Below, one piece after another: positions 28,101 through 49,555 of a DNA stretch of 64,000 bases. Each line of letters starts with the position of its first letter. Position 1 is the first letter of the stretch. A program made the translations under genes and the position numbers. Source of the DNA: a virus (lineage: Duplodnaviria; Caudoviricetes); IMG/VR virus record IMGVR_UViG_3300014203_000016, positions 1 to 64,000 of that record; one strand, given 5' to 3'. Under the pieces are notes generated by a model. It saw only the letters and a list, made by a program, of their open reading frames with translations. It ran no database searches and had not been told where the DNA came from.

Positions 28101-29207
28101 GACGCTTTCCAAGTCGTGGTAATACAAGTCCATACTGAGAATATTCCGGACATTCCCGACTTGTTTTTGCAACGAGCTTTTTGCACGCATAGTAGACACT
28201 TTTTGATTTTGGAACTGCTTATCCAAACGAATCGATAGCGGCGGGATGGTAATGAAGACATCTCCGATACGCACACGGTTCTGATAGTCCCAGGGCAATT
28301 CTTCTCCCATGTCTGCGGTAGGTGCATAAATCGTTCCATTTGAGATGCGGTCATCTACCGGTGGGACAAAGGCTAGGTCGTTGTTCAAATAGCCGACCTG
28401 TGAAACATCTTCTCGAATATGTCCTTTATCTTGGTAATCACTTTTGTATTCTTTCACGGCTTGTTCTATTTCTGCATCTATTGGCAAACGGTCTGGCGTG
28501 ATACCGTCACTAGGCGATTTGACAATTTCTTCCATCGGCGGAACGCTCAATCCTAATTCGGCGCCCCAATCCGCAATCCGGATGCCGTCATTTTTAGAAG
28601 CATATTCATAACCTGTAAATTCAGCCAAAGGAACCATAATAGAACCCGTATAGTCTTTTTGTGTTTGGATATAATTCGAATACATAGGTTTCAACAATTC
28701 TTTATTAATGTTGATTGCCTTAAAGTATCCATCTTTTGCAGCCTGCGCTGCTTCTTCCCAGGTTGTGTAGTCCGTTGCGTAAACGACGCCTAAAAGTCGC
28801 CCGAAGTAATCGGCTGTCGGCTTCATCGTTGCGACATCATATTGCAGACTGACCGCAATAATGCGCTTCGATTCCAACAGAGTATCATTCAGATGTTTGG
28901 CTTCGATTGCGGCTTCATTGAGGATGTCCATGTCGACGCCATAGCACTTCGCGCGGTTCCAGTTGCGCCATTTATCCCCGACACTTTCGAAAGTATCCAC
29001 GCCCAAATAGCGTAATCTGACATGTTGGTCGCCGATGATGGATTGTTCCCCGATTTTTTCCGGGACGGGGTAATTGCCTTCCGGCCAAGCGTAACCGATG
29101 ACGTACCCATCAAGGGTATCGCCGTCGATGGCGTAGGAGCTTTGAGAGTCGAAGAATAGCCAGAATTTATGTTCACTTTCAACTACGGTGTTTTCTACAA
29201 TCGGCAT
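22125..29207 (-). CDS. Giant baseplate hub-like protein with an N-terminal thermonuclease (SNase) domain and an internal lytic transglycosylase-like motif (2360 aa)
   Basis: IDGDTL...RLRYLGVDTFE...DYFGRLLGVVY...NINKELLK (SNase). KAIIQTESGW...GLMG (SLT-like). C-terminal YKGSYTVLGDPTVKPYD...VKAVHQSMSLDTGFITVI is hub-like. Confidence 0.75.
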   Translation of the reverse strand: MPIVENTVVESEHKFWLFFDSQSSYAIDGDTLDGYVIGYAWPEGNYPVPEKIGEQSIIGDQHVRLRYLGVDTFESVGDKWRNWNRAKCYGVDMDILNEAAIEAKHLNDTLLESKRIIAVSLQYDVATMKPTADYFGRLLGVVYATDYTTWEEAAQAAKDGYFKAININKELLKPMYSNYIQTQKDYTGSIMVPLAEFTGYEYASKNDGIRIADWGAELGLSVPPMEEIVKSPSDGITPDRLPIDAEIEQAVKEYKSDYQDKGHIREDVSQVGYLNNDLAFVPPVDDRISNGTIYAPTADMGEELPWDYQNRVRIGDVFITIPPLSIRLDKQFQNQKVSTMRAKSSLQKQVGNVRNILSMDLYYHDLESVNGTKTIGYVTGENETVYYYMDGLRPLLAQFKKAPFLPIDNEYINSVLGIHNVALRSMQAATVPGFPGAMKVTLVVEEFDCGPYLMGQVSLAQKINYPLLRWHYQRSLHEPFLHEPWRTYLPKIDRLDNSFSFSIVNEEQLKARKDNIHEFRSKQTPYEFEQDLLADDTEDGRKYQDALRAQAVLKQYHRFLLELQRGGILEKYDALEKYDHAYEIPIMAGGGVSIENNTENKIGREFAVKMYGESATKDGRSVDMPFFLMGIFADAVKTPANAFFTLYSFSNDVGPFFEKLRKNNRTDIVDVVMDSNAPGFFQLYLEAEENKKTFKDTKAKAYGGDTNGDDPDSELFLIPATDAGAGQYLTKLKKIAELANAFENKVANYTSIYNGLAAEINRTEENMKMDKVFIPDLIPLDMSVELENNFSTVQIQSATTPTMQYFGSQDPQLQITFETTDAGVQATEAMFRKVGRFAKEYREGLVSGFLGIDNPLVNLFGITNVLPQAVQYNTVAGFPDRKIVTITLSAFDKTQRRQESLYGYTGGDITDSLRDRAYDKYDPSIDSVYVHERMRQMELYPDLDMPKVSELNAVLPHINARMKEWENRSDQVFLDPDFYISTKDTYRKYLKDVVDDSKGMLFRWEDASGYVAESNLAEKNPLKMSSTDQTRFEAEAAETEYIDPTLFWDDGFSDETKDASESVTAVTLKPVQPGEYENAEIIEYLSSGSYKNPPSFLTWQSWHGKDRDRDDYDKWKAQLGSPLNDVKVWWYLADCIMTAFADCNIEYAENEEESLKQKELVATNASLSSQYEMDFALGRLVWANAEDYYQKIYAMMTGTIGAGKLLENGKVPDAFADGGYFGGAEALLDAFSDEKPMPFHRIFSYMKAIIQTESGWQQFGNGEAFVYDTNKNQMLPTKAGLMGARLTEAKDASEAQRLIWDWFYNVKTTVNQIAKVFKKAEVSGFREIFARRLDWAVVANSGATLPKILDIKKDTKLTDKLIASVDLKDGFQNGPITPDSSIYFQAVMTTRERERAMATEDIAPGLYMGRNSTIIREIYDFYNATKSSYAQSYDPAEGEYVETGVITEGKQEQMDANYAKDVEQIHNNVENWTPEQKLKGMFVDMYQYDQTGRMLRAFPTFSMQIVDEGKWYDNFRTWDNFYGFNALQSIDVYKSRKIAGDTAVIAMSNMYGGLTSKRKDMEYPDLILPSFFSSQFWEQYVFDTPTEDLLKERQLIFKTMMLETGARIHLRMGYGSDARYLPVVFNGVITEVSAGDVVEITAQGDGLELSNVISGSENDKNKEFMKIIEPSDYIGKLLTSKGNWMKNWINATSDGQFFKENPLGIAHFGSTIEAPSGTVNPFSSSYGESMQNVYSQNGQFTKEQWMKPDGTTVGAIQGLFGGLPSGNLTSKYDEDNILVKLYGSTPWDIIQTFALCSTDYIAAVMPFEMRSSLFFGKPHWPVTYKYNSRYTHDAATGKWRKEIIGEHKKTFMQAHIYTSDYNIVANDIISSEEGVYNNVIVTYDGHVAGPMQADNDIQLDRQKTAMVEANLVARFGTDGNIGQFFGKNYWTVEAQAEKYGMATVRDYMKDMYKGSYTVLGDPTVKPYDSCYLSDTVLDMQGVHMVKAVHQSMSLDTGFITVIEPDAYVVNFDAELLFLPDKIFTVGKTVSFRAAASAINLGNSYLFGGHVLSYIYSELGSLAVKFQPYADKYVGGILKKGYINYYRKMGELTNSPSLLELVSRYEKANHEAFDPNSLLDSDIDDIIADIKKTKNSLRDARKTYKANKRQLKYSKYSNFVTEAFDETKVAKRSIKNFDDFEMWDQLFTHSDELDTLKDEWKVVRNTGNLARMVDTAGTVGKGASKILKTGGKLFLTVASSALFWTVIADVALEVLTSGLIEMWTRRKQNSECVKVVPLQYKGSAWVSGMNGHRGGVWGDDPSLADRIYDAEFGDADEGNDSWWVFVPKLLNQMEGENLADDLTDAQAEAQATEAAEKAETE

Positions 29208-29648: not shown

Positions 29649-32600
29649 TTAGAATCCCAGCAAGCTGTTCATCGTTTTCTCGTAGAAGCTTCGGTCCAAA
29701 GCCTGGGTGTTGTCGGTGATGTTCACGTTCATATTCATCGGCACACCGGTCATGGACGAAACTTGTTGGTTAATGATACCGGATATGGTCTCCTGGTCAA
29801 CGTTGCCGTTGCCGGATACATTCAACCGGATATTCTCTCCTCTAGGTGTAACCCTTGCCGTCGGACTCGTCAAGAGTGCAGCCGGATTAACCTCTACGGG
29901 TGTCGCTTCTTGCTGGGCTTCGTTGCCTTCGGGTGTCGGCCCGCCTTTGATGGCAGAACCGACCAACCACATGGCGGCAAAACCGGCTCCGGCGGCCGCC
30001 GGGGCGCTACCCAACATCTTGCCGGCTTGGTTGCGCAAACCATCGAACATGTTGCCTGCCGTCACGTTGTCTTTCAGGTTGCGGGTTGTTTGGAAAATGT
30101 CGCTCATCCGGCTGAACTGTTGGTCGGCCGCATCGCTGAAACCGTTCTGCCCGCCGTTGGCTTTCTTGCGCATATGCATCAGGTTCTGGACGATGGTTTC
30201 GTTCTCCATCTTGCGGGATGCGTAATAGTTTTTGGCTACTTCGGCATCCTCACCCACACCCGAGAGCTGGGAAACATAATGCTCGACATTGTCCGTACCC
30301 AGAATGGTGTTCGGTCTATCCCGCAAGGCTTCGTACAGGTTGCCGCTGGAGTCTCCGCTCGAACGCCCAAAGTTGAAGGCGTCGTTGCGTAAGGAACCAC
30401 GGTGGGCGGTCGCCTCATTCGCTTGGGCAAAAGAAGTGAATCCGGTGCGGAAGAGGTCTTCTTTGCCTTTCGGAATGGCATCGATGGCTTGCATCTGCTC
30501 CATCAAGCCATCCACGCCGCTGACGCTCAGGTTTTTGATGGCACCCGGAATGGCGCTCTGGGTATCCATGAAGGAACTGGCTTTGCCCATCAGGTAGTCG
30601 ATTTTCTCGCCACCCTTGAGTCCGTCCAGGAAGTCCATGTCGATGCCCATGTTTTCCACGTTGGCTTTTTTCGCATCGATAAAGTTTTGGACAAACAGAT
30701 TGCCGACTTCATCGTAGCTGTTCATGATGTGGTTGTATTCGTCCGCTCCGATTTGCTTCTGTTTCAAGGCTTGGCTGTAGACATAATGCATCATGTCGCG
30801 GGAAGCCACCATCGCGTTGTCGGACATACCGATACCGGCTCCGGCTTGGCGTTTGGCGACGATGTTCAAGGTTTCGTCCAGCTCGCTGGTGCGTTCCTGG
30901 AAGAAGTTTTTCGCTTCCCCGTCGCTCATTTCGCTGATTTTCTGGAAACTGGAGAAGTTGCCCGGTTCCAATACTGTCGCTTTCGCTGTTTTTTGGAACC
31001 AATCGCGCTCGCGGGCCAATGCCCGTTGTACAGCGCGCGGGTCTTCTGCGCCTCGGTAGGCATCCAACACCGCATACAAGGTATCGCCATCGTAATCGGC
31101 ACCCATCGCTTTGGCGGCTTGGCGGGAAACCAACAAGCTATTGTCGGATTTGCTGTCGCTCGTCAAGTTGCTGTCGATGCGCATGCTCAGGAAGTTCAGG
31201 GAACCTTCCGACTGGGTCGGCTGACGGTTAATCATGCCGATGACATCGAAGGTGTCGTCCTTCTCGCGCGTACCCGTCATCCGGCGCAGGATTTCGTCGT
31301 GCATTTCATCCGGGTTTATCATTTCCGGGTTCATGCCGTTGGCGATAAAGATTTCCCGTTCAATGCCTTTGATGGAATGGGAAGCCATCTCGCGGGACAT
31401 GAACGCTTCGGATTCCCGGCGGGTGCCATTGGAAAGGAAGGAGCCATCCAACTGTTCCGCATACGCCCCGAATTGGTTGTAGGTTGCCGCTTTCGCGCTG
31501 AAACCATTGACGGAGCGCATCGTGCCGGTCCCTTTCAGGAAGCCGGATTTGCTACTCGTCGACAAGTACTGGCTCGAGTCGGCGGTCAATTCCGCCATTG
31601 CCGTATTGGCGCGTTTGCGGTAGCCGTCGCCATCGCGGATGATGGCTTTCTGGATATCGTCGCGCGACAAATCTTGCGAAGAATAGTCGCGGTTGTTGTG
31701 GGCATAGACCGAACTGTAGACCGATTCGAAATCTTTCTGGATTTTACGCGGGTTCACGCCCTCGTATTCAGAGAAGCCTTCTTCGATATTGCCGATGATG
31801 GGCACGTAGGTTTTCGCGAACAAATCTCCGGACATCGGGTTGTGCCGGCCTTCCATTTGCGTCTGCAGGAAGGCTTGGCTGTTGTTGCGTTTCAGGAAAC
31901 TGCCCAACTCTTCGTTCTCGATGCCCAATTCTTTGTTGTTCAAAAGAATCGTCATTGGGTCAGCCATGGTGTTGTAGTCGTCCATCTTGCTGCGGTTCTT
32001 GCCTCTGCCGATATCCTTCAATAAGGTGGCATCGAAGACATAATGGCCGTCGACCTTGCGGATGTTGGCATCGGCGGAGCCGGCCACGCTTCCGGTCATG
32101 TCGAACAATACGTTGTTCTCCGCTTTGATGGCGGAGATATCGTTTGCGCCCAGAGATTGCCGCACGCGCGTTCCATAATCGGCATGCGCCGATTGGGTGG
32201 CGCCTTCGGACAGATGGCTGAACTGTTGGTAGATAGGATTGCTTTCCCCATTCAGTTTGCTTTTCAGGATGTTCATCTCACGGATGGAGATGCGGGCGGT
32301 GGTCGATTGGCCGGCATAGTCGAAGACGTTGTGCCAGCGGGCTTGCGTGTAGACGTTGCCTTCATCGAAGCCGAAGTCGGCGCGCGATTGGCCCAAGAAG
32401 GTCTTGTACTGGTCGCGGGCGTAGGTTCCGGTCAATTCTTTGATGTTGGCTGCATCGCCGTACAGCAAGCGTTGGCCGTCAGCGTCGAAGGAAATGGTTT
32501 TGTCCAAGCCCATCGTCGCTAAATGCGGTTGGAAGATGTTCTTGAAGGCTTCGGCCTGAATCGTTTCGCGACTCAAATCCTGCGTCGAAAAGGCTTTGCC

Positions 32601-35600
32601 TTCATTGCCAAGCCATTTCTGGACCGCCGGCAATTCCGCTTGCCCGCCGGTACTCACACGCTCCAAATCTTCGAGCATGTTCTGGAAATCGGTTTCGATG
32701 TTGGTCGCCAACATCCCGCCCCACGGGTTCCTTCCGGTATTGATTTGTTCCTGGACGGCATCGATGCGCGGACCGCTACCGGCATTGAAGATGCGGTCAA
32801 AAATGTCGTCGGCAGAGGTGCGCATGGTCGTACGCGTTCCTTGCAAGCCATCAATCAGTTTAGTGCCGTCGTGTCCCTTTTGGACTTGTTCCAGAATCAG
32901 GTGTGTGCCCTTTTCGGTCTTCGAGATGCCCAGGATTTTTGAGTCTTTGTAGACGCGGTATTTCTGCTCAGCCGCGATGTTCTTGCTGGCTTCATCCCCG
33001 CCGGCACGCATCGATTCCTCCACGATGTCGCCGACCTTCAACAAGCCTTCGTCGGTGATAAGCCCCATCTTGGCCATCTCGTCGTAGCCGATAGGCTGTT
33101 TGAATTTCAGGCTGCCATTCTTGAAGATGGCGTCATTGTTTTCTTTGGCCAACCGCTCCTGCATGCTCTCGCTCAATTGGATGCCGGTCTTCAAGCGGAT
33201 GTTCATTTCGTCCTTGACTTCCATCGCTTGCGCCAAACTTTCGCGGACAATCATCTGCCCATCGTAGTTGGAATGCAAGCCGGACTGCATGATTTTCTTT
33301 TTCGCCTGCAAATCTTCGACGGCGGCACGGATGGTGCGCGGGTCTTGCCCGGAAGCACCCTTGGCTTCCATCTCCAGGATTTCCTTGTCGATTTGTTTGA
33401 TTGCCAAGTCCACTTTGTTCTGCACTTCGCTGTCGTTCATGTAAGCCGAACGGATGCCGATGCCCCGGACGCCGGATTCTTTGCCGATGGCCATGTCGTA
33501 AGCGGCCATTTGCGCCGTGTCGGAACTGTTCAGGCGCCGGCTGATTTGCTCCGGACTTAAACCGGATTGTGCCAGGTAATTCTCTAAACCACTTTGTTCC
33601 ATTGTGTGGTAGTTTTGCGTCTTCAGGATTTGGTCACGGGTCGCCGGATTGTGCGTGCCCAATGGGGTCAGATTGCGTTGGTCTTTTACGTAGACTTTAC
33701 CGGACATGAACTGTTGGGTATTGGTTCCCTGAGTGGTTACCTGGATGCCATCCTTGCCCTTACCGTACGCTTTGTTCCACTCGAAGGGTAACTGCAACAA
33801 GACTTTGTTGCGCACGTTAAACGCTTCTTTTCGGGGTTTCCAGCCACTGTTGATAAAGTTGACATCTTGCTTGTCGTTGTCGCGTTGCCATCTCTTGAAC
33901 TCGTCCGCATAACCGCCGCCCATGCGTCCCAATAAGGTATCCCCGTAATCCGAGATGTCCATTGTGAAACCGGAAGCAAGGTTCTTGTTCCGCGAAGCCG
34001 CCGCCCAAGCCGTATCCGAGTTGCCGTCACCGGGGAAGCGACTGGATACTTGACCGTTGGTCATCTTGTGGCGATAGCTAGCCAAACGTCCGTCAACAAT
34101 GTCATTCATTGACACCTTCTGGCCTTGGCGTTTGGCGTCTTCGGCTTTCTTGTTGATTTGGCTCGGCAACCATTTCAGTTCATCGAAAGCCCGTTCGACG
34201 GTGCTTGAATAGCTCATTTCCGGTGCGCTATGCCCGAAGTCGGTGCCGATTTTGGCTTTGTATTGGTTCATCAAACGCGTGCCGTTGATGTTGACCGAAC
34301 CGGACTTGTCGAACAGCGGAATCGAAACGCGGTTCACTTTTGAACTGAAACGTTTTTCGTCGACGGTCATGTTGTTCATGAAAGGCGCATTGCCGGCTTC
34401 GGTAAAGAACAACACCATGTCGTCGCTTTCTTTGATGTAGTCCAAGCTGACGCCAAAGCCATTGGCCTCGAAAGCGGCCACGGTCTCTTTGATGCGGGCA
34501 TGGTAATCGACGCCGGAAGTGTTTTTCTTTCCGCCTTGGTTGAAGCTGAAAATGTCCGTGGTTGCGCGGACCTGATTGTCGAAATAAGCGCCGACATCTT
34601 CGGCGGTCTTCAAGCGGGTTGCCACGCTTCCGCTCAGATTGTCGAGGTCGAAACTGCGGAAGTTGCCACGGGTCGTTTCTGAAGACAATTGTTCCTTCGA
34701 TTGCGCCAAAGCTTCTTGGTGCCAGGATTGGAAACTTTCATGCTTGTTCGAGCTGAGGTTGCTGATGTAGTCCGCTCGTCCAGATTGGCCGTTGCTGGTT
34801 GCGCCTTTGATGTTGAACCCCGGCACACTGCTGACGACACGGTCGGAGGAAGTCGCGATTTCCTGAATGCGGTTGGTCAGACGCTTGATGGTGTTCTGGG
34901 AAACATTCCCGTTGGTTCGAATTTCCTTGCGGGCCTGTTCATAGATTTCTAGACGGGTTTTGTCGTCCATCGTGCCCCCGATTTGTTTCAGCATGTTGTC
35001 GAAATCCAACAAGGTCATGCTGGCGTTCTTGTTCGCGCCCGTGCGCAACACTTGCCCAATCCGTCCCTGCAGCATCTTGTTGTCCGACACGTTCAGGTAG
35101 GTGGTCTTATCGTCGAGCGTCTTCATCGGGATGACCTTCATGCCGTCGTATGTATAACTCATCTGGTTGTCCGGCAATTCCTGCTTGTAGCGGGTTGCGA
35201 AGTTCGAGATGTACAGGTTCTGGGACATGCCGGCTACGCTTGGTCGGTCGCCGGGTTGCGGAATCTGCTTGGCGTTTTCGATGACATTGTTCCACATGCC
35301 TTGTTCTTCGCGCAGGATGCCCTTCAATCCCACCGTCTTCTCTATTTTTTCGTAACTGCGGTAGTATTGCGAATCGGTTTCTTCGCTTGCGTTGTAGGCA
35401 TCTTGAACGTTTTTGATGGCCAACTTCTCGATGTTTCCGTTGAAGCCGCTATTCTGCAGGTTGGTGACTTCCGCATCGTACTTGTCCAGTATTTCATAGG
35501 ATTTGTTCAAGCGTTTCACGATGGTATCTTTGTCGTTGTATTTCATGCGGGGGTCGAACAATTCATCGTAGTAACGACGGTAACTGTCGCTCTTGATGTA

Positions 35601-37064
35601 GGACTGACGACTGGCGCTGACTTCCTCTGCCGGCGTCAGGTTCTCGTTGAAAAGATTCGTCAGTTCGGATTGGCTTTCCCGGAAAATGGTTTTGATGGTA
35701 TTGCTGTCCACATCCCGCAAGGTCATGCCGTAGTGGTCGACGCCATTGATGGCTTTCTTACCGGCGCTTCCCAAGAATTCGTATTGGTGACCCGCCACAA
35801 TCGAAGCTTCCTGGAAACGGTAGTTCTGCACGAAGCGGTCTTCCTTTTCGTCCCAACGCATCGTCACATCATACTGCCCGCGATTGCGGTTGAAGGCACT
35901 GTCATAATAACCGCCCGTCCCTTTTTCGGAAACGAACAGTTGGTTCTTTTGGATGGCTTTGCTCTGGCTTTCGCCCAAAGCGCCGGCTTTCACCAACCGC
36001 AATTCGTCATTGAAGACGAATCCGTTCATGGCCGTATCGTCACCGGCATAATGAGCCAGTCCGCCCGAAACGTTTTTTGGCGCCACGGCATTGAAAATGG
36101 TGGAAAGTTGGTTGTTCTTCGTGTCGGCCTTGGTCTGGTTATACACCTTTTCCGCCAATACCAACGTATCGATATGCGGTTGGGTTATCAGTTGCATGGC
36201 TCTTTTTCCAGCTGCGGACGTTTGCGGGCCCATCCATTCAGCGGTGTTGCCTTGGTCGAACTTCTGGACATTATGCCCGACGAAAACCGGGTTTTTTTCT
36301 CCAAACATGTTGATGGCTTCAATGCCTTGTTCTTTTGTGTTCGTATATTTCAAGTCAGACTGAATCGCAAGTCCTTTACGGGCGCGCGCAATGTTTTCGG
36401 CCGTGCCCAAAGCAATGCCCTTGTAGCTCGGCTTGTTCGCCGATTGCCCGGTCATGACGGCGAATTCTTTTCCGCCGATGATTTGTTTACCGAAGTAACT
36501 TTCGTTATCCGCAACCGTCAAGTCGGCCACAGAACGGCGCAAGCCCTCATCCATCCGGTAGAAGGAAGAAGGGTCGCGTTCCAATTGGTCCAACGCGCCG
36601 GATAGTTTCGCGTGCGTGTTGCCGCTGATTTGCATCGCCAATACAACGGCTTCTTCTTTGGCGCTCACACTGGCCCCATCATAATGGTGTTTGTGCAGAG
36701 AGATTTGGGTGACATCGAAGAAGTCATCCGCCGTTTGTTTGCCGAAGAGGTTGCGGTTAGAGGTTCCCAACGTTTCCGTATCCCAAACCACGACATCGCG
36801 GTCATTCGAGGAGAGCAGGTCATCCAACGCCCGTTTGGTTTCCGACAAGTCATTGGAGAGACCGGGCGTTGCATAGATGCCGATATCACCCATCTTGTTT
36901 GGGCCATCTGGCATCATTTCTTTGGCCGCTTGCATCCCTGCCGCCTGGCGCGCGTCGCTGTCGCCGTAATCCTGCCCGAAACTGTAGGGACTGGTGTAAA
37001 CGTTGACGGCATCGCCATATTGTACTTGGGTAATCCCTAACGCTTTGTTGAACGTGTCTACCAC
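29649..37064 (-). CDS. Putative virion single-chain two-barrel RNA polymerase fused to an N-terminal DEDDh exonuclease (2471 aa)
   Basis: GTG start with SD GAGGAGG. Exo motifs WDTET, GHNVQKFD, AHYAGDD. Beta-like NYDGQMIVRESL, GTKLIDGLQGTR, IDAV...GRNPWGGML. Beta-prime-like KSGFLKG, NRQPT, GADYDGD. Confidence 0.85.
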   Translation of the reverse strand: MVDTFNKALGITQVQYGDAVNVYTSPYSFGQDYGDSDARQAAGMQAAKEMMPDGPNKMGDIGIYATPGLSNDLSETKRALDDLLSSNDRDVVVWDTETLGTSNRNLFGKQTADDFFDVTQISLHKHHYDGASVSAKEEAVVLAMQISGNTHAKLSGALDQLERDPSSFYRMDEGLRRSVADLTVADNESYFGKQIIGGKEFAVMTGQSANKPSYKGIALGTAENIARARKGLAIQSDLKYTNTKEQGIEAINMFGEKNPVFVGHNVQKFDQGNTAEWMGPQTSAAGKRAMQLITQPHIDTLVLAEKVYNQTKADTKNNQLSTIFNAVAPKNVSGGLAHYAGDDTAMNGFVFNDELRLVKAGALGESQSKAIQKNQLFVSEKGTGGYYDSAFNRNRGQYDVTMRWDEKEDRFVQNYRFQEASIVAGHQYEFLGSAGKKAINGVDHYGMTLRDVDSNTIKTIFRESQSELTNLFNENLTPAEEVSASRQSYIKSDSYRRYYDELFDPRMKYNDKDTIVKRLNKSYEILDKYDAEVTNLQNSGFNGNIEKLAIKNVQDAYNASEETDSQYYRSYEKIEKTVGLKGILREEQGMWNNVIENAKQIPQPGDRPSVAGMSQNLYISNFATRYKQELPDNQMSYTYDGMKVIPMKTLDDKTTYLNVSDNKMLQGRIGQVLRTGANKNASMTLLDFDNMLKQIGGTMDDKTRLEIYEQARKEIRTNGNVSQNTIKRLTNRIQEIATSSDRVVSSVPGFNIKGATSNGQSGRADYISNLSSNKHESFQSWHQEALAQSKEQLSSETTRGNFRSFDLDNLSGSVATRLKTAEDVGAYFDNQVRATTDIFSFNQGGKKNTSGVDYHARIKETVAAFEANGFGVSLDYIKESDDMVLFFTEAGNAPFMNNMTVDEKRFSSKVNRVSIPLFDKSGSVNINGTRLMNQYKAKIGTDFGHSAPEMSYSSTVERAFDELKWLPSQINKKAEDAKRQGQKVSMNDIVDGRLASYRHKMTNGQVSSRFPGDGNSDTAWAAASRNKNLASGFTMDISDYGDTLLGRMGGGYADEFKRWQRDNDKQDVNFINSGWKPRKEAFNVRNKVLLQLPFEWNKAYGKGKDGIQVTTQGTNTQQFMSGKVYVKDQRNLTPLGTHNPATRDQILKTQNYHTMEQSGLENYLAQSGLSPEQISRRLNSSDTAQMAAYDMAIGKESGVRGIGIRSAYMNDSEVQNKVDLAIKQIDKEILEMEAKGASGQDPRTIRAAVEDLQAKKKIMQSGLHSNYDGQMIVRESLAQAMEVKDEMNIRLKTGIQLSESMQERLAKENNDAIFKNGSLKFKQPIGYDEMAKMGLITDEGLLKVGDIVEESMRAGGDEASKNIAAEQKYRVYKDSKILGISKTEKGTHLILEQVQKGHDGTKLIDGLQGTRTTMRTSADDIFDRIFNAGSGPRIDAVQEQINTGRNPWGGMLATNIETDFQNMLEDLERVSTGGQAELPAVQKWLGNEGKAFSTQDLSRETIQAEAFKNIFQPHLATMGLDKTISFDADGQRLLYGDAANIKELTGTYARDQYKTFLGQSRADFGFDEGNVYTQARWHNVFDYAGQSTTARISIREMNILKSKLNGESNPIYQQFSHLSEGATQSAHADYGTRVRQSLGANDISAIKAENNVLFDMTGSVAGSADANIRKVDGHYVFDATLLKDIGRGKNRSKMDDYNTMADPMTILLNNKELGIENEELGSFLKRNNSQAFLQTQMEGRHNPMSGDLFAKTYVPIIGNIEEGFSEYEGVNPRKIQKDFESVYSSVYAHNNRDYSSQDLSRDDIQKAIIRDGDGYRKRANTAMAELTADSSQYLSTSSKSGFLKGTGTMRSVNGFSAKAATYNQFGAYAEQLDGSFLSNGTRRESEAFMSREMASHSIKGIEREIFIANGMNPEMINPDEMHDEILRRMTGTREKDDTFDVIGMINRQPTQSEGSLNFLSMRIDSNLTSDSKSDNSLLVSRQAAKAMGADYDGDTLYAVLDAYRGAEDPRAVQRALARERDWFQKTAKATVLEPGNFSSFQKISEMSDGEAKNFFQERTSELDETLNIVAKRQAGAGIGMSDNAMVASRDMMHYVYSQALKQKQIGADEYNHIMNSYDEVGNLFVQNFIDAKKANVENMGIDMDFLDGLKGGEKIDYLMGKASSFMDTQSAIPGAIKNLSVSGVDGLMEQMQAIDAIPKGKEDLFRTGFTSFAQANEATAHRGSLRNDAFNFGRSSGDSSGNLYEALRDRPNTILGTDNVEHYVSQLSGVGEDAEVAKNYYASRKMENETIVQNLMHMRKKANGGQNGFSDAADQQFSRMSDIFQTTRNLKDNVTAGNMFDGLRNQAGKMLGSAPAAAGAGFAAMWLVGSAIKGGPTPEGNEAQQEATPVEVNPAALLTSPTARVTPRGENIRLNVSGNGNVDQETISGIINQQVSSMTGVPMNMNVNITDNTQALDRSFYEKTMNSLLGF

Positions 37065-37096
37065 TCTGTTTCCTCCTCAAGAGCCCCTGTGCGGGG

Positions 37097-39158
37097 CTAC
37101 ATGTAGTTTGTGTAATTTTGCATGCCGGCTTTGATTTCTTCCGAACGGTCTTTTTGGATATTCAAACTGGTACTGAACGAATCTTCTGTTGCAGAACCTA
37201 CCTTCATGCCGATGCGAACATCTTTCAATCCGGCTCCGCGCAAAGCCTTCTCTAAATCTCCCGTATTAATCATGGTAGAAAAAAGGCTTTGTCGAATAGG
37301 AATAGCCTCGACTCCGGATTGGTCGGCGAGTTTTTCGTCATCGCCCCAATAGTTAGCTTCGGTCAATTCGATGCCCTCATTGCGCATCACTTTCAGCTTG
37401 ATGCTGTCCAAGGATGTGCCGGGGTTCCAGCCTTCCCACTTGGCACCGGGCAGATTGTATTTATCGAAATACTTATTCAGGTCTTCCGGTTCGTCTACTT
37501 TCAAGCCGAATTGCTGTTGGTAAATGCGCTTCTGGTTTTCCGGCACCAATTCCAATATCCGTTGCCGTTCACGCGGAGAAGCTTTGGCGAAAGCAGTGAA
37601 ATATTCCTTATCTTTCTTCGGCAAGGCCCGGTATGTCTTGCTGTAGTTGTAAGTATCCGATGCTCCGAACAACGTCGATTCGAATTCGTCTTTGTAACGA
37701 AGCGCCAAAGCGGCATAAGGGCCCACTTCGCCGGTCGGTCGGTCGCTGTCGATTTCATTCAACTGCAACTTGATGTCGGCCAATTCGGTGTCGATGTTCT
37801 CGCTGTTGGCGTCTTCGCTATCTTTCTTGATGTTAAGCCATTTTTTCTTGTTGTTCAAGTAGGCTTTCAAGTTTTTATTATCTTTTCCGCGCGTCGTATT
37901 CGTGTCGAAATACGCGTCCAAATCCATGCCTTCATATTTCTTGGCATCATCTTTGGCTTTCTCGTACAAACCCTTGTATTTGATGTATTTGATTTTGTCG
38001 AAGTACTCGTCGACTTCGCGCTCGCGTTCGCGGCGTTCCGGAATCCAAATCTCTTTTCCGCCCGGCGTCAGTTCTCGTCCGGTATCAATCACCGTCCGTA
38101 CACCGGAAACCAATCCGAAGACAATCCCGGTGCCCATTCCTTTGTTCCATTTGTTCTTCTTACCGGCCAGCAAGCCGATTCCCAATCCATTCAGGAAGGA
38201 AAGCCCCGGATTTAAGGCGGCCGTACTGTCAAACATCGGCATCAACCAGTCGCTAATCGGATTCTTCCAGTCACGCCAAGATTTGCTGTACAGTTCATCC
38301 GCATACGCTTCCGTCGCTGATTTCACTGGTAGGAATTTGTCGGCGATGATATTCACAACCGGTACCATCGGCAACAAATCATGAACCATCCATTCCGTCA
38401 ATTTGCCGGTGGTCAGTTGTCCCTCGGAGAACAAAGCTTCGGTCGCGATGGAGGATTCGTCATCCTTCAAGGTCACCGTTCCACCGTATTCTTCCGTGCG
38501 TTTCGACAAGTAGTAGTTCAGGTTGTCGTGCGCACCCAAACCTTCCATACCGAAGCGCGAACCTTTGGCCGCGTGCGGCGTATACACAACCACACGCATC
38601 GTGTCCATCATGTCATCGCGGACGCGTTTCAGCGGGTCTCCGTCGATGGAAACCTGCAGTTTCTGCCCCGGTTTGATGAATTGGCCAATCATCGCTTTGT
38701 TTTCTTCGTCATCCGTCTTGACGTTTACCCCTGCTAATTTAAACGGGTTATTCGCATATTCTTCCGTCAGGAAGGTGTTCTGGTCAAGGACTTGGGTGAC
38801 CGTGACGGTCTCTTTTTCGTTGTCCATATTCTGGAAGCGTTCCGCATAGAAGTTTTTCTTCTTCATGCGCGAAGAAACTTGGTCGCGGATGGTCGCGTAC
38901 TCGTCCTGTTGGCGTTCATCCAAATAACCGTTTTGGTTCAGGAGTGCGACTTCTTTTTTGGCCGCCCGGTACTGGTCTGAGTAAGGGGCTACGTCAGCCA
39001 AAATGCGGTAGCGGTCCAATGCAGAGTAATTGCCCTGTGCGTCTTTGCGTACCCCGTATAATTTTTCATATGCATCTCCAGGCAAGCGCTGTTCACCCTT
39101 GGCGACTTTCGCATAGGGGTCGCCGTGCAAGAAATCCTGGAAGTAACCGGCGCCGGGT
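37097..39158 (-). CDS. Exon 2 of the tape-measure-like giant protein (spliced product 2170 aa)
   Basis: After removing 39159-40162 the frame reads ...NTMPTW-L-PGAGYFQDFLHGDPYAK, in frame with the 677-aa ORF. No SD precedes that ORF's TTG. Confidence 0.85.
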
Positions 39159-40162
39159 CGTTTATCTTCGCAATAATTCGCTAAATTATTACCGTTCTTT
39201 TATGAACTGCTGCATGTTTCCATGCAGACGAGACTATATCTTCACCGCTCTAATTGAGCAGGCTCTCTGTTTCCATTTAATCCCTATGCTTTTGCAATTC
39301 TTCCTGATTACGGAAGACGGGAGCCGCTTGGCTGTACTCTACTCGGTTTGCCTTATCAAAATAAGACCTTCCCTTTTGATAGTCGTTGAACTTAACAACT
39401 TAGTTCTTTTAAGAGTTTGTCTCTCCACTGGATAGCTTCTTCCAGCTTCTTGAAGCTTTTCCGGTACTTCTTTTTGTTTCTTGAAATACCAACTTCGTAA
39501 AGACCATCTCTTTTGTCGTAGGATATATTTCTTAGTCCGGTCGTTTGGTTGTCGTACCGCTTATTGATGTTTTGAGTAGAACGATTTGCCCAGATGCAAT
39601 TTTCTTTGGAATATCCTGCATCGTTATCTATTCTTTCTATGCTTTGCATTGGAGGAGCTTCTCCCATATCTTGAAAGAAATTTTCGAACAACATCCATTC
39701 TTCTGAAATGCCAATCCCTCTTCCTCCGTAGTTGAAATAGCTTTCGCTTTTCGGATTGAGGCATCGTTGTTTCATTCCTACCCAAACATTATAAGTCCTT
39801 GTGTTTGCTTTTCCATGGCTTGTTATGTTGTTGAGAAAAATTTCTTTAGCAACACAACCACAAGAAGTGGTTTTTCCTAAACGAACCGAGGAGCCATTGA
39901 TTATTTTTTGACTCCCACATTTGCATTGGAATAACCAAAACGCCCCGCCCTTCCCCATGTGGGAAAAATTAATTGCGGTGAGTTTTCCAAACTGCTTTCC
40001 TACCATATCTTTTACTCGATAATCCATCATTATCACTCCTTCATAAGGAATATGATACCATAGACTACCGGGGAGAACTAGAGTTATTAAGCTGCTGATT
40101 GCCCTCGCCTTTACGTTAGGGGTTTCCAGCAATTAAGAAAGTTTATACTGACCAATAAGTCT
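39159..40162 (-). ncRNA. Group I self-splicing intron (1004 nt, IA-like) carrying an HNH endonuclease gene
   Basis: P1 exon CUGGCU pairs with GGUCAG, with U-G at the splice site. P element AAUUGCUGGAAA, Q AAUCAGCAG, R GUUCAACGACUA, S AAGAUAUAGUC (P7 GACUA/UAGUC). P9 CUGCAUG-GAAA-CAUGCAG. Terminal G at 39159. Confidence 0.93.
39392..40030 (-). CDS. Intron-encoded HNH homing endonuclease with a C-terminal AP2-like domain (212 aa)
   Basis: ATG 40030 with SD AAGGAG. WLFQCKCG...TTSCGC, YGGRGI, SIERIDNDAGYSKENCIWA...QNINKR. Lies in the P6a loop; lower GC than the exons. Confidence 0.9.
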   Translation of the reverse strand: MMDYRVKDMVGKQFGKLTAINFSHMGKGGAFWLFQCKCGSQKIINGSSVRLGKTTSCGCVAKEIFLNNITSHGKANTRTYNVWVGMKQRCLNPKSESYFNYGGRGIGISEEWMLFENFFQDMGEAPPMQSIERIDNDAGYSKENCIWANRSTQNINKRYDNQTTGLRNISYDKRDGLYEVGISRNKKKYRKSFKKLEEAIQWRDKLLKELSC

Positions 40163-43100
40163 AGCCAGGTCGGCATCGTATTCCGAATCGGATTGTAGTA
40201 ATCCTTGTTCGGGTCACGTGGCAAGTAACGCCGTCCGATTTCCGACAGGTCTCCGCCCAAACCACCGAGTTCATTTTCCCAGAACTTGTCGTTGTAATTG
40301 CTGAATCGGTCGGAGGATTCCAAGGTGGTGCCCCGGCCCGATTCCTCGAAGCCGAAAGCGGTCTTGGAAAGGAAACCGTACATACCGGCAAACTCGCCTG
40401 CGTTGTAGGTGATGTCCCGCATAACGCCGTTCGGATTGAACAGGCTCGCTTGATTAACGGCGCCATTCAGTCGCAACAGGACATTCGGGTCAGCCATCGT
40501 GCCGGCTTGGGATACTTGGTCACTCCGGTTGATGGTCTTGCCGTCTGTTAAGCGCGCATTCATCTGCCCCAATAAATATTGGGCAGAAGCACTGCCACTT
40601 CTGCCGACAGTACCGACTCCTGCGACGTTGCCTTCCCCATAGGTTTCCGTCAAAGCGGCAAGCTGGTCTTCCGGTACGGGCGTAACGGAACCGCCTCCGC
40701 CACCATTGCCGACTGCTGAGAAGATGCGTCCCAGGAATCCGCCCGGCATCGTGCCACCCGGCAGTTGTGGGATAACACCCGTGCTGTTCATCAAGCCGAT
40801 GGCCATCCGGTCACGTTCGGCGTTAAAGGTCATTTCATCGGCAATCAAAGCTTCTTCGTTCAGTTGGCCGTTTTCGTCCGTGAAGTTCACGTCGAAGACA
40901 TCGGAAGAAAGCGTCATGCTGCCGTTCGGCCCCATGTTGACGACGCCACCGGCATTCATGTTGATGTAAGCTGCACTCAAGCGTTCGTTATAGGAAGAAA
41001 GATAGGCTTCGTGTGATTCTTTCAGGTGACGGTTTGTCCGTTGCGGTTTGAGCACCCCGGACACGACTGTATCGATAGCCGGTCCGACCAATGGCACGTT
41101 CTGCAGTTCGGCAAAGCCACCGGTGACGGCATACGGACGGCTTTCTGCATGCTTGTCTTCGTAATGATAAGGGTCGGTGATGAAGTGTTTGATGGGTGCG
41201 AACGGATGCGTCAGTGTCGGCATCCAGTTATTGGCCCAGTATTCGTTCTCGGAACCGTACATGTTGTCAGAGAATTGGTAATCCGATTTCGCTTTCCGGT
41301 ACCAGTTGGCTTCGTAGCGGTCGATTTTGTTCCCCATCCAAGGCGAGTTGGAACCGATGTCCCAGAAACGGCCTTTGCGGATTGGGTCTTCGCCGGAGGT
41401 ATAGTATTTCTCTACATCTTCGGCTGTCCGGAAATCGGAGAACAGGCCGAAGGTAGCGAAGTTGAAGGCTTTGACCGGCGCAATCGCGCCAATCTGCTCG
41501 CCCCACGGCATGATTTTCTGCATGTCCCGGCCCCAGTTGTTGATGCCGGCGAATTCTTTCACGCGGTTTACGTCTTCGTGCATGTTGACGTACGTGTCGG
41601 CAGCCGCATCACTGGTCGCATCGCCGGTCATGCCGTCGAAGTAGACAGCTGTCTGGAAGGCGGCGTACGGCAAAACAATCCGGCGGGCCCATTGGTTGAA
41701 GAGAATTGATTGCGGGCTGTCTTTCAGGTGGTTCGGCAATCCCAATCCCAACTTCTGCAACGGCGTGTCCAAACGGTTGGCCAAGTGCCAAGGGATGACC
41801 GAAGCATCTGTGATGTTTCCGTGTCGGCCTGCGAACAGAGTCCCGCCTTGCTTGGACCAGTTAAAGATGCCTTCCGCCAGTCCAGCGGCATTGTTGAAGT
41901 CTTCATGATTGAAAGGCTGTTCTTCCCCTGCCTTTGACAGCGAGGCATTGATGGATTCCTGCAGTGTCGTATGTTTCTTGATGGGGGTGCGTTTGTTTGC
42001 CCCCAACAAATCGTCGCGTTTCTCGCCTGCGCCGGTGCCGTACCAAGGGTCTGTTTTGGCCAATGAATATTCCAGGTTGGACAGATTCTCTGGATTGTTT
42101 TTGTAGAAAGTCAGCCATTCGAGTTGGTTGTCATCGATATCCTTGACGCTGTTGCCTTTGGTTTTTGAATTGAAATAATCCATTTGCCCCAAGGCGCGCA
42201 GTTCGCCGATTTCCGCGCGGACATCATTCGGGAAGATGCCGGGGGTCGACAAGATGCTTTTGTTCAGGTCGATGCCTTTTTCGTCGGCCAACGCGATGCC
42301 GTATTCCTCAATCAGTTTGCGCAAATCATCGGAGGCTTTGACGCCGACCGTTTCGTTTTCCATGACATTGCCCATCTTGTCCGGCACATAAACATTCCGG
42401 CTCTTCAAGTAACGGGTGCGGTCCAGGAAGCCTTGCTGGTCGGGCATATAATCGCCAAAGAATTGCTGGCTGATTTCTCTTTCGAGATTGTTGCGAATGC
42501 GTTTTTGGGTCGTATCCAGCATCGTTTCCGGTTCGGAACGCAAACGAAAGCTTTCGCTGATGTTTTGGGCAATGCCCATCAGTCCGTCATCGGTCTTGAT
42601 ATCATAGAGGTCCATGTTTTTCAGGCTCATATTGGACTGGCGGTTAATCAGGTCGCCCAATACATCATAGACAGCTTCCTTGCTGTTCGGCGAAAGGTTC
42701 TTCGTCCGTCCGAACAGGTTGGCATAGGCCTGCTCAACGACATCTTCGGAACTGGACCAGCCTTGGTCGCTGCGTTTATAGATTTCCCCGACGATGTTTT
42801 CGGCATACAGCGGGTCATCGAATTTCGTGACTGCCCGTTTGATTTTACCGAAAACCGTTTCGCTTTCTTGCCCCAAGCCAAACAGCTGTTTGATGGCTCC
42901 CGGCTTATCGAAGTTTTCGATGTTGGTGCGGTCGGAAATGACATCGGCGTAATGCTTGTACATACCGCTCCGCAAGCTGACGCTGTCATAGTTTTCCCCT
43001 ACTAAATACTCGCCGCTCTTTTCGCGGAAAGCTCGGTAGGCATCGGCATCGGTCAGCCCGGACATCTCCTTGGAAATGCCGGTGTCGAAGATGTCGCCAT

Positions 43101-44613
43101 CCACATGCATGTAGGATTGGTTCAGTATCTTGGCGTAGGAAGTGGTGTTGCGGGATTCATCCACCCGGCGCAGGTTGTACTTGTCCTGGTCCATGAATGT
43201 GAAGAAGTCTTTGCCGTCTTCGTAGATTTCGAAGATGGTGGAATTGCGTTCTTTTGCCAATGTCCGTTTCGGCAGGAAATCGAGCGGGTTCATGTTCAGG
43301 AACGGGATTTGCCAGTTCTGTTGGAAATAATCGCCCATCTCGTTCGTCAGTTTGCCCATGCCCTGGACGTTGATGACCTCTCCGCTTTTGTTGTCGAGGA
43401 ACAGTTGGTTGGAGAAGACGTGCTGTTCTAAATCGGTGCGGTCCAAGCCCATTCTTTCGCCGGCCTGGATGTATTGCCGCGCGAACGGTTGGCTCTTTGT
43501 TTTCGAATTCAAACCGAGCGTATCTGCAGAAGAACTCGTCCGCAAAGGGGTGGAATAGCGGTCTTCAATCGTCCGGCCCTTGTTGTCTATCGAGCTTTTG
43601 ACCAAAAAAAGTTTGCCGTTGCGTTCTTCGGCGACGCCATCGCGGGCTTGTGCCATCGTGATTTGGGAATAGCCGTTTTCGGTCATCAGTTTCGTAAAGC
43701 TGTCGCTGTTCTTTTCGGCATGGGTCTTGCGTACCGATTCGAACAAGCCGATATCATACAACTGTTTATGCTGAGCATAGACATTGTCTTTGCTTGTGAC
43801 GGCCCCGCCGGCTTTTTTGGCTACGTATTTTGCCTCATCGACTTGTGCTTGCGTCTTGGTATAGCTTTCGAGCGACAAGTCCATCATGTTTCTGACGAAG
43901 GCTTTTTGGCTTTCTTCGTCGCGCGGATGGATGCCGAGATTGATGTTGCGTTTCGGATTGTAGTTGTATTCATCGAACAGTTTTTTGATGTTGACGTTGT
44001 ATTCATCAAAGATTTCCTTGCCGTTGGCATCGGTTGTCTTCCGCAACCCTTTGGCCGGGTCTTTCATGAGCCATTCGGCATTGTTCTCGAACATGCGGAT
44101 GACGTTGTCGAAGTTTTCCCCGAAGGCATCGCGGTAGGGGCCATCGGCACGGTTGGCGGCATTGCGCATGTTGATGATGGACGCGTCGCGTTTTGCCTTG
44201 CGGTGATTGCCCTTGTTGCGGTCGCCCAAGCGTTGTTGGCTTTGGTAGACATCGTCCAAGGCGTTGATTTCCAGACGCTTGCTCAGGTCTTTGTTGTAGG
44301 TGGCCAAGTTCCGGTTCAATTGGGCTTTGCGGCTGTCCGGATGCAAATAGGCGCGGGCAATGTTGCGCGGGCTAGCCTGTCCATATGTTTCCACGACAGC
44401 GCTGGAAAGGCTCTTCATTTCCCCGATTGTTCCCCGGAAACTGGCATTATTCGTTGCGCGGGATAAGTTCACCTTCCCTGATTTTAAAACGCCTGAGACC
44501 CCTTTAATCAGCTGATTTCGGTTTTTGTAGGCGGCATACCCAATCCCAAGACCGGCTGCCACTTGCAGGAAAGAAGGGCCTCTTCTCCCTTCTTCTTCTG
44601 TCCTATTTGCCAT
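40163..44613 (-). CDS. Exon 1 of the tape-measure-like giant protein
   Basis: The 1500-aa ORF follows the tail chaperones, the usual TMP position. Its last 16 codons are intron sequence. Confidence 0.75.
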
Positions 44614-48022: not shown

Positions 48023-49555
48023 TTAGAAGCTGTCAGGTGTAGACAAGCCGATAGTTACATCGATTGCACGCAATTCGAATTGTGGCAAGATAGTCATGTT
48101 TACAGTAGCTGCATCCAACGAGTTACCCAAAGTGATAGAGTAGCGTGCGTCTTGGATGATTCCTTTGTCGATAGCATCTTTGATAACTGCCTTGATGGAA
48201 GTATTCATTGAGTTATAGACAGGGAATTCGTTCGGCATACCGATGAAAGCGTCGCAAGATTCGCGGATGGCTTTGACCATATGGTTTGTGATACGCAAGG
48301 TAGACAAACGGGTGAAGTCGGATTTAATAACTTCATCTCCAACATACAAATCTGGTGCGGTTGTTACGCCGTCGACTACGATGATGCGGTTGTTCTTCGT
48401 ACGGAAGGTTACGTATTTGTTTCCAACCAATGCGTTCAATTGACGCAAGGAGAAGTTGTAGCGCAAGCCGTGAGCGGCAGGCAAGGTTTGGTTTGTTGAT
48501 GCAATTTGTGGTTGCAGTCCGTTCACCAAGCAAGCGTATTGTGTAACGCCGGATACCCATTGTGCGCGTAAGCTTCCTGGTACAGTGATGGCAACTTGTG
48601 GGCCAACAACAACTTGCAGATATTTAGAAATCTGGTTATTGCGGACAACCAATGCATCTACGTGTGCTTTGATGGCAGCCAAGGTTGTGTTTGCAGGAGC
48701 AGAAGTTGTTGCGTATGCGATGCAGTTTCCTACTTCTAAGCTTTGACGCTCAGCATAAGCAGCCAACATAACAGCCGGATTACCAACACCTTGAACGACA
48801 GCTGTGATAGCAGTCAAAGCCAAAGCGGTTAAGACGGCAGCGCCAGTGAAAGTAACAGCTGCGGTTGATTTCGCAACGACTTTGCCGGCAATCAATTCGA
48901 AAGTAATTCTTGCATCCGAACCAACAACGCTTAATGCTTGTGCCATTTCAATATTTAACAATGGGATAAGTTCCCCAATTGTTTTAGTCGCATCGATAGT
49001 TACGACCGCTGGTTCAGTGCCTGCAATTGTTGCAGTCAAAGTAACAGGAACGGTAACGGTCAAAGTAGCAGGAGCTGCAGTAGCAGTGAAAGTATTGAAT
49101 ACTTCTACGCCGGCCACGTCATTGATGTTAGAAACACCTTCGAAGTCGCCTGCGACAAGAGCAGGAACAACGTCGTCTGCGTATAGACCAGACAAAACAA
49201 CGTGAGAGATGCTCAAGTCAGCCATCAGGTTGAATAATTTGTCTTGCAGATTTACGAATTTTGCTTTCAAGTCAACACCAGCAAGAGCCAACAAGTAAAT
49301 GTTGCTTACGCCAGCTTCTTTAGCGGCTTTCCATTCAGCAGCAATCGGGTTCAATTCTCCCAAGTAGAAAAATCCACCGAAGTTGGCTTTCAGTTCTTCT
49401 TCTGTGGAAATGTAGACAGGCTCTTCAGGCAAAGTAAGATTTGTTTTTGCCTCTGCGATAATCAATAGGCTGTTTCCGGTTTTGTCAGATGAAACCAACA
49501 ATTGACCGTCTTTAACCGTCATGTTTACGCCAGGTAAATTAGGATAATTAGACAT
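48023..49555 (-). CDS. Tail sheath protein (510 aa)
   Basis: Starts YPNLPGVNMTVKDG. C-terminal LNALVGNKYVTF...DGVT...LSTLRI...PQFELRAIDVTI is typical of contractile sheaths. Confidence 0.9.
   Translation of the reverse strand: MSNYPNLPGVNMTVKDGQLLVSSDKTGNSLLIIAEAKTNLTLPEEPVYISTEEELKANFGGFFYLGELNPIAAEWKAAKEAGVSNIYLLALAGVDLKAKFVNLQDKLFNLMADLSISHVVLSGLYADDVVPALVAGDFEGVSNINDVAGVEVFNTFTATAAPATLTVTVPVTLTATIAGTEPAVVTIDATKTIGELIPLLNIEMAQALSVVGSDARITFELIAGKVVAKSTAAVTFTGAAVLTALALTAITAVVQGVGNPAVMLAAYAERQSLEVGNCIAYATTSAPANTTLAAIKAHVDALVVRNNQISKYLQVVVGPQVAITVPGSLRAQWVSGVTQYACLVNGLQPQIASTNQTLPAAHGLRYNFSLRQLNALVGNKYVTFRTKNNRIIVVDGVTTAPDLYVGDEVIKSDFTRLSTLRITNHMVKAIRESCDAFIGMPNEFPVYNSMNTSIKAVIKDAIDKGIIQDARYSITLGNSLDAATVNMTILPQFELRAIDVTIGLSTPDSF

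Follow-up and report, generated by a model that had tools for sequence, protein, structure and literature searches.

A DEDDh exonuclease and a two-barrel RNA polymerase predicted on one polypeptide in the tail module of Bacillus-type jumbo phages

What would a 3'-5' exonuclease of the DnaQ type do on the same polypeptide as a phage RNA polymerase? The question is raised by a gene for a protein of 2,471 amino acids (aa) in IMGVR_UViG_3300014203_000016, a metagenome-derived IMG/VR record (Caudoviricetes) of 81.8 kb with an estimated completeness of about 36%, the first 64 kb of which (64,000 nucleotides; hereafter the window) were analyzed here. An earlier note on the window had proposed that an apparently intact DEDDh exonuclease is fused to the N-terminus of the RNA polymerase. 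Both halves of the proposal hold, the fold, the invariant catalytic residues and the two-barrel core placing a DEDDh exonuclease and an RNA polymerase on one chain. As to the site of the fusion, the two enzymes share a polypeptide but do not adjoin directly, since about 750 residues lie between them in the sequence. The analysis supports the interpretation of the protein as a probably injected phage RNA polymerase of a known sort with an exonuclease attachment of which the searched literature has no description.

The fusion gene occupies positions 29649..37064 of the window (this and all following coordinates are on the minus strand) as a single open frame with a GTG start at 37064 and a stop codon at 29649-29651. 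A Shine-Dalgarno sequence, GAGGAGG (37072..37078), can be read directly 7 nucleotides (nt) before the start codon. The protein opens with V-V-D-T-F-N and its closest relative with M-A-D-T-F-N; because the relative begins at the same place, the GTG start is supported. The polypeptide has three recognisable parts: an N-terminal DEDDh exonuclease, a two-barrel RNA polymerase core, and a hydrophobic segment with a C-terminal module.

The 3'-5' exonuclease domain, which is of the DEDDh (DnaQ/RNase T) type, covers aa 70-365 (35970..36857). Its motifs were found at the residues claimed in the earlier note, all of them at nt 36036-36794 and hence inside the interval 36000-36800 given there: the ExoI motif VVVWDTETLG (D95, E97; 36765..36794; VVWDTET in the note), whose D-x-E signature lies on strand 89-100 of the structural model; the ExoII motif FVGHNVQKFD (N265, D270; 36249..36284), in which GHNVQKFD agrees with the pattern N-x(3,4)-[FY]-D; HIDTL (D299; 36162-36176); and the ExoIII motif AHYAGDD (H338, D343; 36036..36056), whose H-x4-D arrangement, not Y-x3-D, marks the "h" subtype. 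Conservation was assessed in an alignment of 21 full-length members of the family, 17-90% identical to the window protein. Residues D95, E97, G100, N265, D270, D299, H338 and D343 are invariant in 21/21 members, down to 17% identity, and because of this invariance the motif match is more than a chance resemblance. The protein of Bacillus phage Edson also retains every catalytic residue (FFDIENIGT, GGQNINTYD, THMALQD). The mean pairwise identity is 26% in the exonuclease domain vs 22% in the polymerase modules. Fold, motifs and conservation agree, and as judged from the sequences this is a complete DEDDh domain under purifying selection; in all likelihood the exonuclease is catalytically active.

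The spacing of the motifs had been described as DnaQ-like, and this applies to one of the two distances. ExoII and ExoIII are 73 aa apart (69-93 in the family), as in DnaQ, whereas the distance from ExoI to ExoII is 175 aa (family range 167-182), against only about half as much (~90 aa) in Escherichia coli epsilon. The long ExoI-ExoII spacing is due to a conserved, family-specific stretch of about 100 aa inserted into the exonuclease fold (aa 148-254; 36303..36623), which consists of helices and a beta-hairpin in the model and carries the motif RRSxADL. With a mean pairwise identity of 29%, second only to the C-terminal module, the insert is the best-conserved part of the exonuclease domain, and its residues D181, L182, G231 and L232 are invariant or nearly so. 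The exonuclease is followed by a beta-rich domain (aa 366-480; 35625..35969) with confident strands in the model, which is kept in the family including Edson. Both the insert and the beta-rich domain could be nucleic-acid-binding or docking elements.

The region models as an RNase H-like alpha/beta fold of the DnaQ type, as the earlier note had expected. The AlphaFold2 (AF2) model of aa 1-480, built on the family alignment, has a mean predicted local distance difference test score (pLDDT) of 84.6 and a predicted template modelling score (pTM) of 0.78, and a Foldseek search with this model retrieved PARN, RNase T and TREX2 at probability 1.0. Among PDB sequences, the family profile matched DEDDh chains, namely 9l8b (E 1e-4) and the PolC exonuclease 2p1j (E 3e-4). 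In the profile alignment ExoII is in register with HNA-NFD of 2p1j and ExoIII with the H-x4-D of PolC and other DEDDh chains. The Pfam family RNase_T (PF00929) matches two of 20 family members (best E 7.8e-6), and NCBIfam PolC models match the domain of the window protein itself (E 1.4e-3). In the ESM Atlas the nearest named clusters are stand-alone phage DnaQ-like exonucleases, which is a lead only. Searches of sub-segments of the fusion protein against Pfam gave nothing useful.

The polymerase core consists of an RNA polymerase beta-like module (aa 1120-1590; 32295..33707) and a beta'-like module that includes the catalytic barrel (aa 1851-2300; 30165..31514). The latter contains the signature NRxPxQ...ADxDGD, here NRQPTQ...ADYDGD, with the metal-binding motif DYDGD at 31083..31097. 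R1947 and P1949 of NRxPxQ and D1990, D1992, G1993 and D1994 are invariant, the three aspartates, R1947 and P1949 in 21/21 members; K2132/K2133 are invariant in the alignment as well. A DxDGD motif preceded by NRxP and a second, beta-type barrel module are thus present on the same chain, as expected of a two-barrel enzyme. The family profile matches the beta' chains of the AR9 and phiKZ polymerases (E 4e-3 to 7e-3), the Pfam family RNA_pol_Rpb1_2 matches two of 20 members (2.8e-5), and PHROG 2987, "RNA polymerase beta subunit", was found with E 0.002. The AF2 model of aa 1120-2300 has a pLDDT of 83.9; with this model, Foldseek retrieved beta', Rpb2, A135 and beta chains at probability 1.0. According to the models, aa ~1120-2300 form a single-chain two-barrel RNA polymerase core in the order beta, then beta'. 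It is very probable that a functional RNA polymerase resides in the same chain as the exonuclease.

The remaining parts of the protein differ strongly in conservation. The middle region (aa 481-1119, ~640 residues; 33708..35624) has no Pfam match. A hydrophobic segment at about aa 2350-2372 (29949..30017), read from the translation as ...GAGFAAMWLVGSAI..., contains the invariant residue W2366 and is possibly a membrane helix. It is followed by the C-terminal module (aa 2373-2471; 29652..29948), which has the strongest conservation of the protein: its mean pairwise identity is 50%, vs 19-29% in most other segments and 16% in aa 1-69. The module is 100% identical to that of the nearest relative, is conserved beyond both enzyme domains, and was the only part of the window protein matching WH1 gp095 in a TBLASTN search. 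The module could be matched to no known family or fold; it may be a candidate assembly or ejection signal.

How constant is the fusion? An exhaustive phmmer search with aa 1-420 against 1.84 billion representatives yielded 23 proteins. Twenty of them have giant lengths of 2,366-2,608 aa and a further member has 1,708 aa; the remaining two, a RelA/SpoT protein and a low-complexity sequence, are not relatives. No stand-alone relative of the exonuclease region was present among these 23 matches. The family emerged by the exhaustive search, a word-indexed protein search having reached only three relatives; pattern-based locus searches in IMG/VR and GTDB genomes gave no confirmed relatives and no prophage copies. 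The identical protein is encoded on an independent 104-kb ENA contig, and the fusion recurs with similar length and the same neighbours in about 20 metagenomic clusters. Homologs are also found in three isolates, the Bacillus phages KLEB27-3 (gp034, 2,434 aa), Edson (0920, 2,515 aa) and WH1 (gp095); the N-terminus of the Edson protein matches the family hidden Markov model at 1e-58. An assembly chimera, which the earlier note had named as a possible source of the fusion, is excluded because the same fusion is found in the three isolate genomes and in the independent ENA assembly, and in the ~20 clusters. All full-length relatives agree in domain order, in motif spacing and in total length (2,366-2,608 aa), and among at least 21 members none was found without the exonuclease or with the exonuclease exchanged.

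The genomic context points to the virion. All long open reading frames (ORFs) of the window are on the minus strand and together form the structural module of a contractile-tailed phage, which is related to Bacillus jumbo phages. Genes for the major capsid protein (54205-55317) and two sheath-like proteins (50249-51760 and 48023-49555) lie upstream of the fusion gene. The latter is encoded inside this structural (late) module, as expected for virion-packaged phage RNA polymerases. The shared order of genes is as follows: tube and chaperone-sized genes, a tape-measure-like giant, the fusion gene, a hub-like giant (2,300-2,600 aa) and a cell-wall hydrolase. Around the fusion gene, KLEB27-3, Edson and three metagenomic contigs have this order in common, and in 6/6 loci examined the fusion gene is downstream of the sheath and capsid genes and flanked by the tape-measure-like and the hub-like giants. 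GenBank labels KLEB27-3 gp034 as "structural protein" and WH1 gp095 as "virion structural protein". By analogy with the injected two-barrel polymerases P23-45 gp96 (PMC10770324) and crAss-like gp66 of phi14:2 (10.1101/2020.03.07.982082), and given the gene position and the labels, the fusion protein is probably delivered with the virion.

These observations suggest the following scenario. The fusion protein would be a component of the tail or virion that is ejected into the cell together with the DNA or before it, and the injected polymerase would transcribe the first phage genes without host RNA polymerase, in the manner of P23-45 gp96, crAss-like gp66 and N4 vRNAP. The exonuclease would be an integral, permanently attached module that trims free 3'-OH ends arising at the work site of the polymerase. 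The likeliest substrates would be 3' ends of nascent, arrested or mis-extended RNA, or RNA or DNA ends by which the polymerase would be blocked or mis-primed; in second place would come 3' ends of DNA, at nicks or at the termini of the genome. DEDDh enzymes require a free 3'-OH end. Cleavage of cyclic signalling oligonucleotides, one of the roles put forward in the earlier note, is unlikely, as cyclic molecules have no free 3' end. Because no relative lacks the domain or has it swapped, and because the spacing and the insert are fixed, we tentatively favour action of the exonuclease in cis with the polymerase over that of an independent effector, with a confidence that stays a little below even. 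Within the reading in cis, RNA 3' ends are a possible though rather unlikely target when taken by themselves, and DNA 3' ends are an unlikely one. In vitro, the crAss-like gp66 accepts single-stranded DNA as a template for transcription but not double-stranded DNA (10.1101/2020.03.07.982082), and given this preference, template preparation at nicks by the exonuclease remains conceivable.

In the most specific form of this proposal, a DNA-dependent two-barrel RNA polymerase would have the DEDDh domain as its dedicated exonucleolytic partner, whose tasks would be trimming or proofreading at RNA 3' ends or the rescue of arrested complexes, in place of the active-site cleavage stimulated by Gre or TFIIS. 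Two-barrel RNA polymerases, whether from cells or from viruses, are to our knowledge all dependent on cleavage within their own active site for correcting or rescuing transcripts. Nidoviruses have a DEDDh exonuclease that serves an RNA-synthesising polymerase, their nsp14 ExoN working for the nsp12 polymerase; we know of no other well-known case of exonucleolytic RNA proofreading and of no other DEDDh enzyme that serves an RNA polymerase. The nidovirus polymerase is RNA-dependent, of the right-hand type and located on a protein of its own, no homology is implied beyond membership of the DEDDh superfamily, and for the protein studied here proofreading is a hypothesis only. If the exonuclease were such a dedicated partner, which we regard as unlikely, DNA viruses would have in the fusion a counterpart of the ExoN-polymerase pair of nidoviruses.

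Several points weigh against a role of the exonuclease in transcription by the attached polymerase, or against the assignments on which it is based. When a known two-barrel polymerase backtracks, the RNA 3' end is enclosed by the narrow secondary channel; to come within reach of an external exonuclease, it would have to be backtracked over a long distance, or the enzyme would have to be unusually open. Nor is it obvious that selection would act on the fidelity of early transcripts. The exonuclease and the polymerase core are about 750 residues apart, and the sequence affinity leans to DNA-proofreading exonucleases (PolC, epsilon), so that a DNA substrate fits at least equally well. Pfam gave no match to the whole window protein at E <= 1, and single-sequence phmmer of this protein gave none among PDB sequences; the assignments depend on profiles, relatives and AF2 models from only 21-22 sequences. 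The GenBank labels "structural protein" and "virion structural protein" are annotations. Finally, independent enzymes co-delivered on one injected polypeptide are common in phages (PMC5512222).

The last point, the frequency of injected multi-enzyme "polyvalent" proteins (PMC5512222), also favours another explanation, in which the exonuclease shares the polypeptide with the polymerase and acts alone, either degrading host DNA or RNA to supply nucleotides or to shut off the host, as DexA of phage T4 does, or attacking linear nucleic acids that are parts or products of defence systems. Separate action would be compatible with the spacer of ~750 aa, the nearest neighbours in feature space are stand-alone phage DnaQ-like exonucleases, and the adjoining downstream giant may hold a second nuclease (staphylococcal nuclease (SNase)-like N-terminus, Pfam E only 0.11). 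Polyvalent injected proteins, however, vary in domain make-up among relatives (Iyer et al. 2017; PMC5512222), whereas architecture, length and motif spacing are fixed in at least 21 members of the fusion family, which does not have the shuffled domains of the polyvalent sets. In addition, with only a few molecules in each virion, a host genome would hardly be degraded efficiently, and cyclic signalling nucleotides would offer a DEDDh enzyme no free 3' end. An independent effector is the main rival reading, which we consider possible but on balance not likely. An exonuclease that enters through the tail could also process the genome ends, by 3' resection of the incoming linear DNA, either for annealing of terminal repeats and circularisation or for producing 5' tails that exclude AddAB/RecBCD. 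The closest structural and sequence relatives of the domain are indeed DNA exonucleases (PolC, epsilon, DinG-exo, ExoI, TREX1), a protein ejected through the tail, as the gene position implies, would be at the site of DNA entry, and for the related jumbo phage 0305phi8-36 a fixed end has been described as the first to enter (PMC2147016). The IMG/VR record, however, is only part of a genome (~36% complete by estimate), and if the leading end were resected in the 3'-5' direction, the strand to be read by an inward-moving polymerase would be lost. The same polarity conflicts with the suggestion of the earlier note that the ejected genome end is processed, if this were to create a single-stranded template at the leading end. 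Genome-end processing would also leave the permanent fusion to a polymerase unexplained, and although it is a serious rival, we regard it as improbable.

Could the partner of the exonuclease be something other than an RNA polymerase? DnaQ-type exonucleases typically partner DNA polymerases, and the best matches of the domain include PolC and epsilon; moreover, the two-barrel core of PolD polymerises DNA and works with an exonuclease subunit (PMC7281927). If the core were a PolD-like DNA polymerase or primase, DEDDh would be its classical proofreader. Yet the fold matches are RNA polymerase beta/beta', Rpb2 and QDE-1, while a PolD DP2 chain is absent among the matches listed, which is weak evidence; the gene lies in a tail module with homologs annotated as virion proteins; and the exonuclease of PolD, DP1, is a Mre11-like phosphoesterase, not a DEDDh enzyme (PMC7281927). 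A DNA polymerase or primase is for these reasons very improbable. That the domain is a catalytically dead remnant, or the fusion an artefact of assembly or annotation, might be suspected in a metagenome-derived record with a protein in which Pfam is blind to the domain. This suspicion can hardly be correct, given that the five DEDDh residues and N265 are invariant in 21/21 members, that few parts of the protein are as well conserved as this domain, and that the same fusion occurs in three sequenced isolates and an independent ENA assembly.

The earlier note knew of no description of the fusion, and no report of a DEDDh-two-barrel polymerase fusion was found in the searched literature, with subscription-only papers lying outside the search. 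The closest known systems include the crAss-like phi14:2 gp66 virion RNA polymerase (Drobysheva et al.), the eukaryotic QDE-1 and, in particular, P23-45 gp96 (Chaban et al. 2024, PMC10770324). The latter is likewise a tail-module giant with a single-chain two-barrel polymerase, the DxDGD motif and hydrophobic or membrane segments, and is proposed to leave through the tail for transcription of the first genes. On the other hand, gp96 is the tape measure of a non-contractile tail with the polymerase at the N-terminus, and an exonuclease is unmentioned in PMC10770324, whereas here the N-terminus carries a DEDDh domain, the tail is contractile, and a separate tape-measure-like giant is encoded upstream. 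Sequence similarity between the fusion protein and P23-45 gp96 was not detectable. PolC and the Pol III epsilon subunit (DnaQ) differ in having a family C DNA polymerase (Pol-beta-like/PHP) instead of a two-barrel enzyme as their partner, and in the much shorter ExoI-ExoII spacing given above. DinG of Staphylococcus aureus (PMC3270479; PDB 8zef) also has an N-terminal DEDDh exonuclease fused to another nucleic-acid machine, but this is a superfamily 2 helicase core in a cellular repair protein, not a virion polymerase. Single-chain two-barrel polymerases of Bacillus (jumbo) phages are represented by 0305phi8-36 orf99 and SPbeta YonO (PMC2147016, PMC7824862). Unlike the fusion protein, they are RNA-dependent RNA polymerase/YonO-type proteins (PF05183), non-virion, encoded among non-structural genes, and without an exonuclease. 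The fusion protein had no TBLASTN match in 0305phi8-36, and no PF05183 match was found in the 81.8-kb record, which, being only ~36% complete, does not speak against a second polymerase of the phage.

The neighbours of the fusion gene have features of their own. The gene of the tape-measure-like giant (37097-44613) is split into three ORFs: 40111-44613 (1,500 aa), 39392-40132 (246 aa) and 37097-39130 (677 aa). The middle one, in the insertion, is an HNH endonuclease gene matching PHROG 374 (E 2.5e-67). The 1,500-aa ORF aligns with an unsplit homolog of 2,204 aa from residue 14 to about residue 1500, and the 677-aa ORF aligns with residues 1528-2198 of this homolog at 57% identity. KLEB27-3 has the same split into three ORFs (gp031, gp032 and gp033). 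No RNA family, including group I introns, was found by Rfam at the gathering threshold in the whole window, which does not confirm an intron; for the HNH-bearing insertion, an intron or separate genes are both possible. A 15-nt GC-rich hairpin, GCCCC-GCACA-GGGGC, followed by TCTT, is located at 37082-37096 inside the 32-nt intergenic gap, after the stop codon of the 677-aa ORF (TAG, 37097-37099) and ahead of the fusion gene's Shine-Dalgarno sequence; weak termination or RNA stabilisation could be its function. Downstream, the hub-like protein (22125-29207; 2,360 aa) has no Pfam domain and matches PHROG 20474 ("endolysin") over aa 1474-2313 with E 9.5e-194; the label looks doubtful, and the KLEB27-3 counterpart is labelled "putative baseplate protein". 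At the N-terminus of this protein (28308-29207) there is a sub-threshold, unconfirmed Pfam match to the staphylococcal nuclease family PF00565 (E 0.11, aa 65-174). If this match is true, the tail module has two nucleases on neighbouring giant proteins.

The family also concerns the annotation of phage genomes, since its genes, for proteins of ~2,500 aa, are now annotated only as "structural" or "hypothetical" and standard tools miss the two enzymes in them. The finding would add a third or fourth independent phage lineage that injects its own transcriptase, here among the Bacillus-type jumbo myoviruses, and as the isolates KLEB27-3, Edson and WH1 are cultivable, the role of the exonuclease is directly testable. 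The finding has a bearing on the proposed common origin of transcription and replication enzymes, PolD being a two-barrel polymerase with an exonuclease subunit. A conserved family with a permanently attached DnaQ-type exonuclease would be a new design for two-barrel RNA polymerases.

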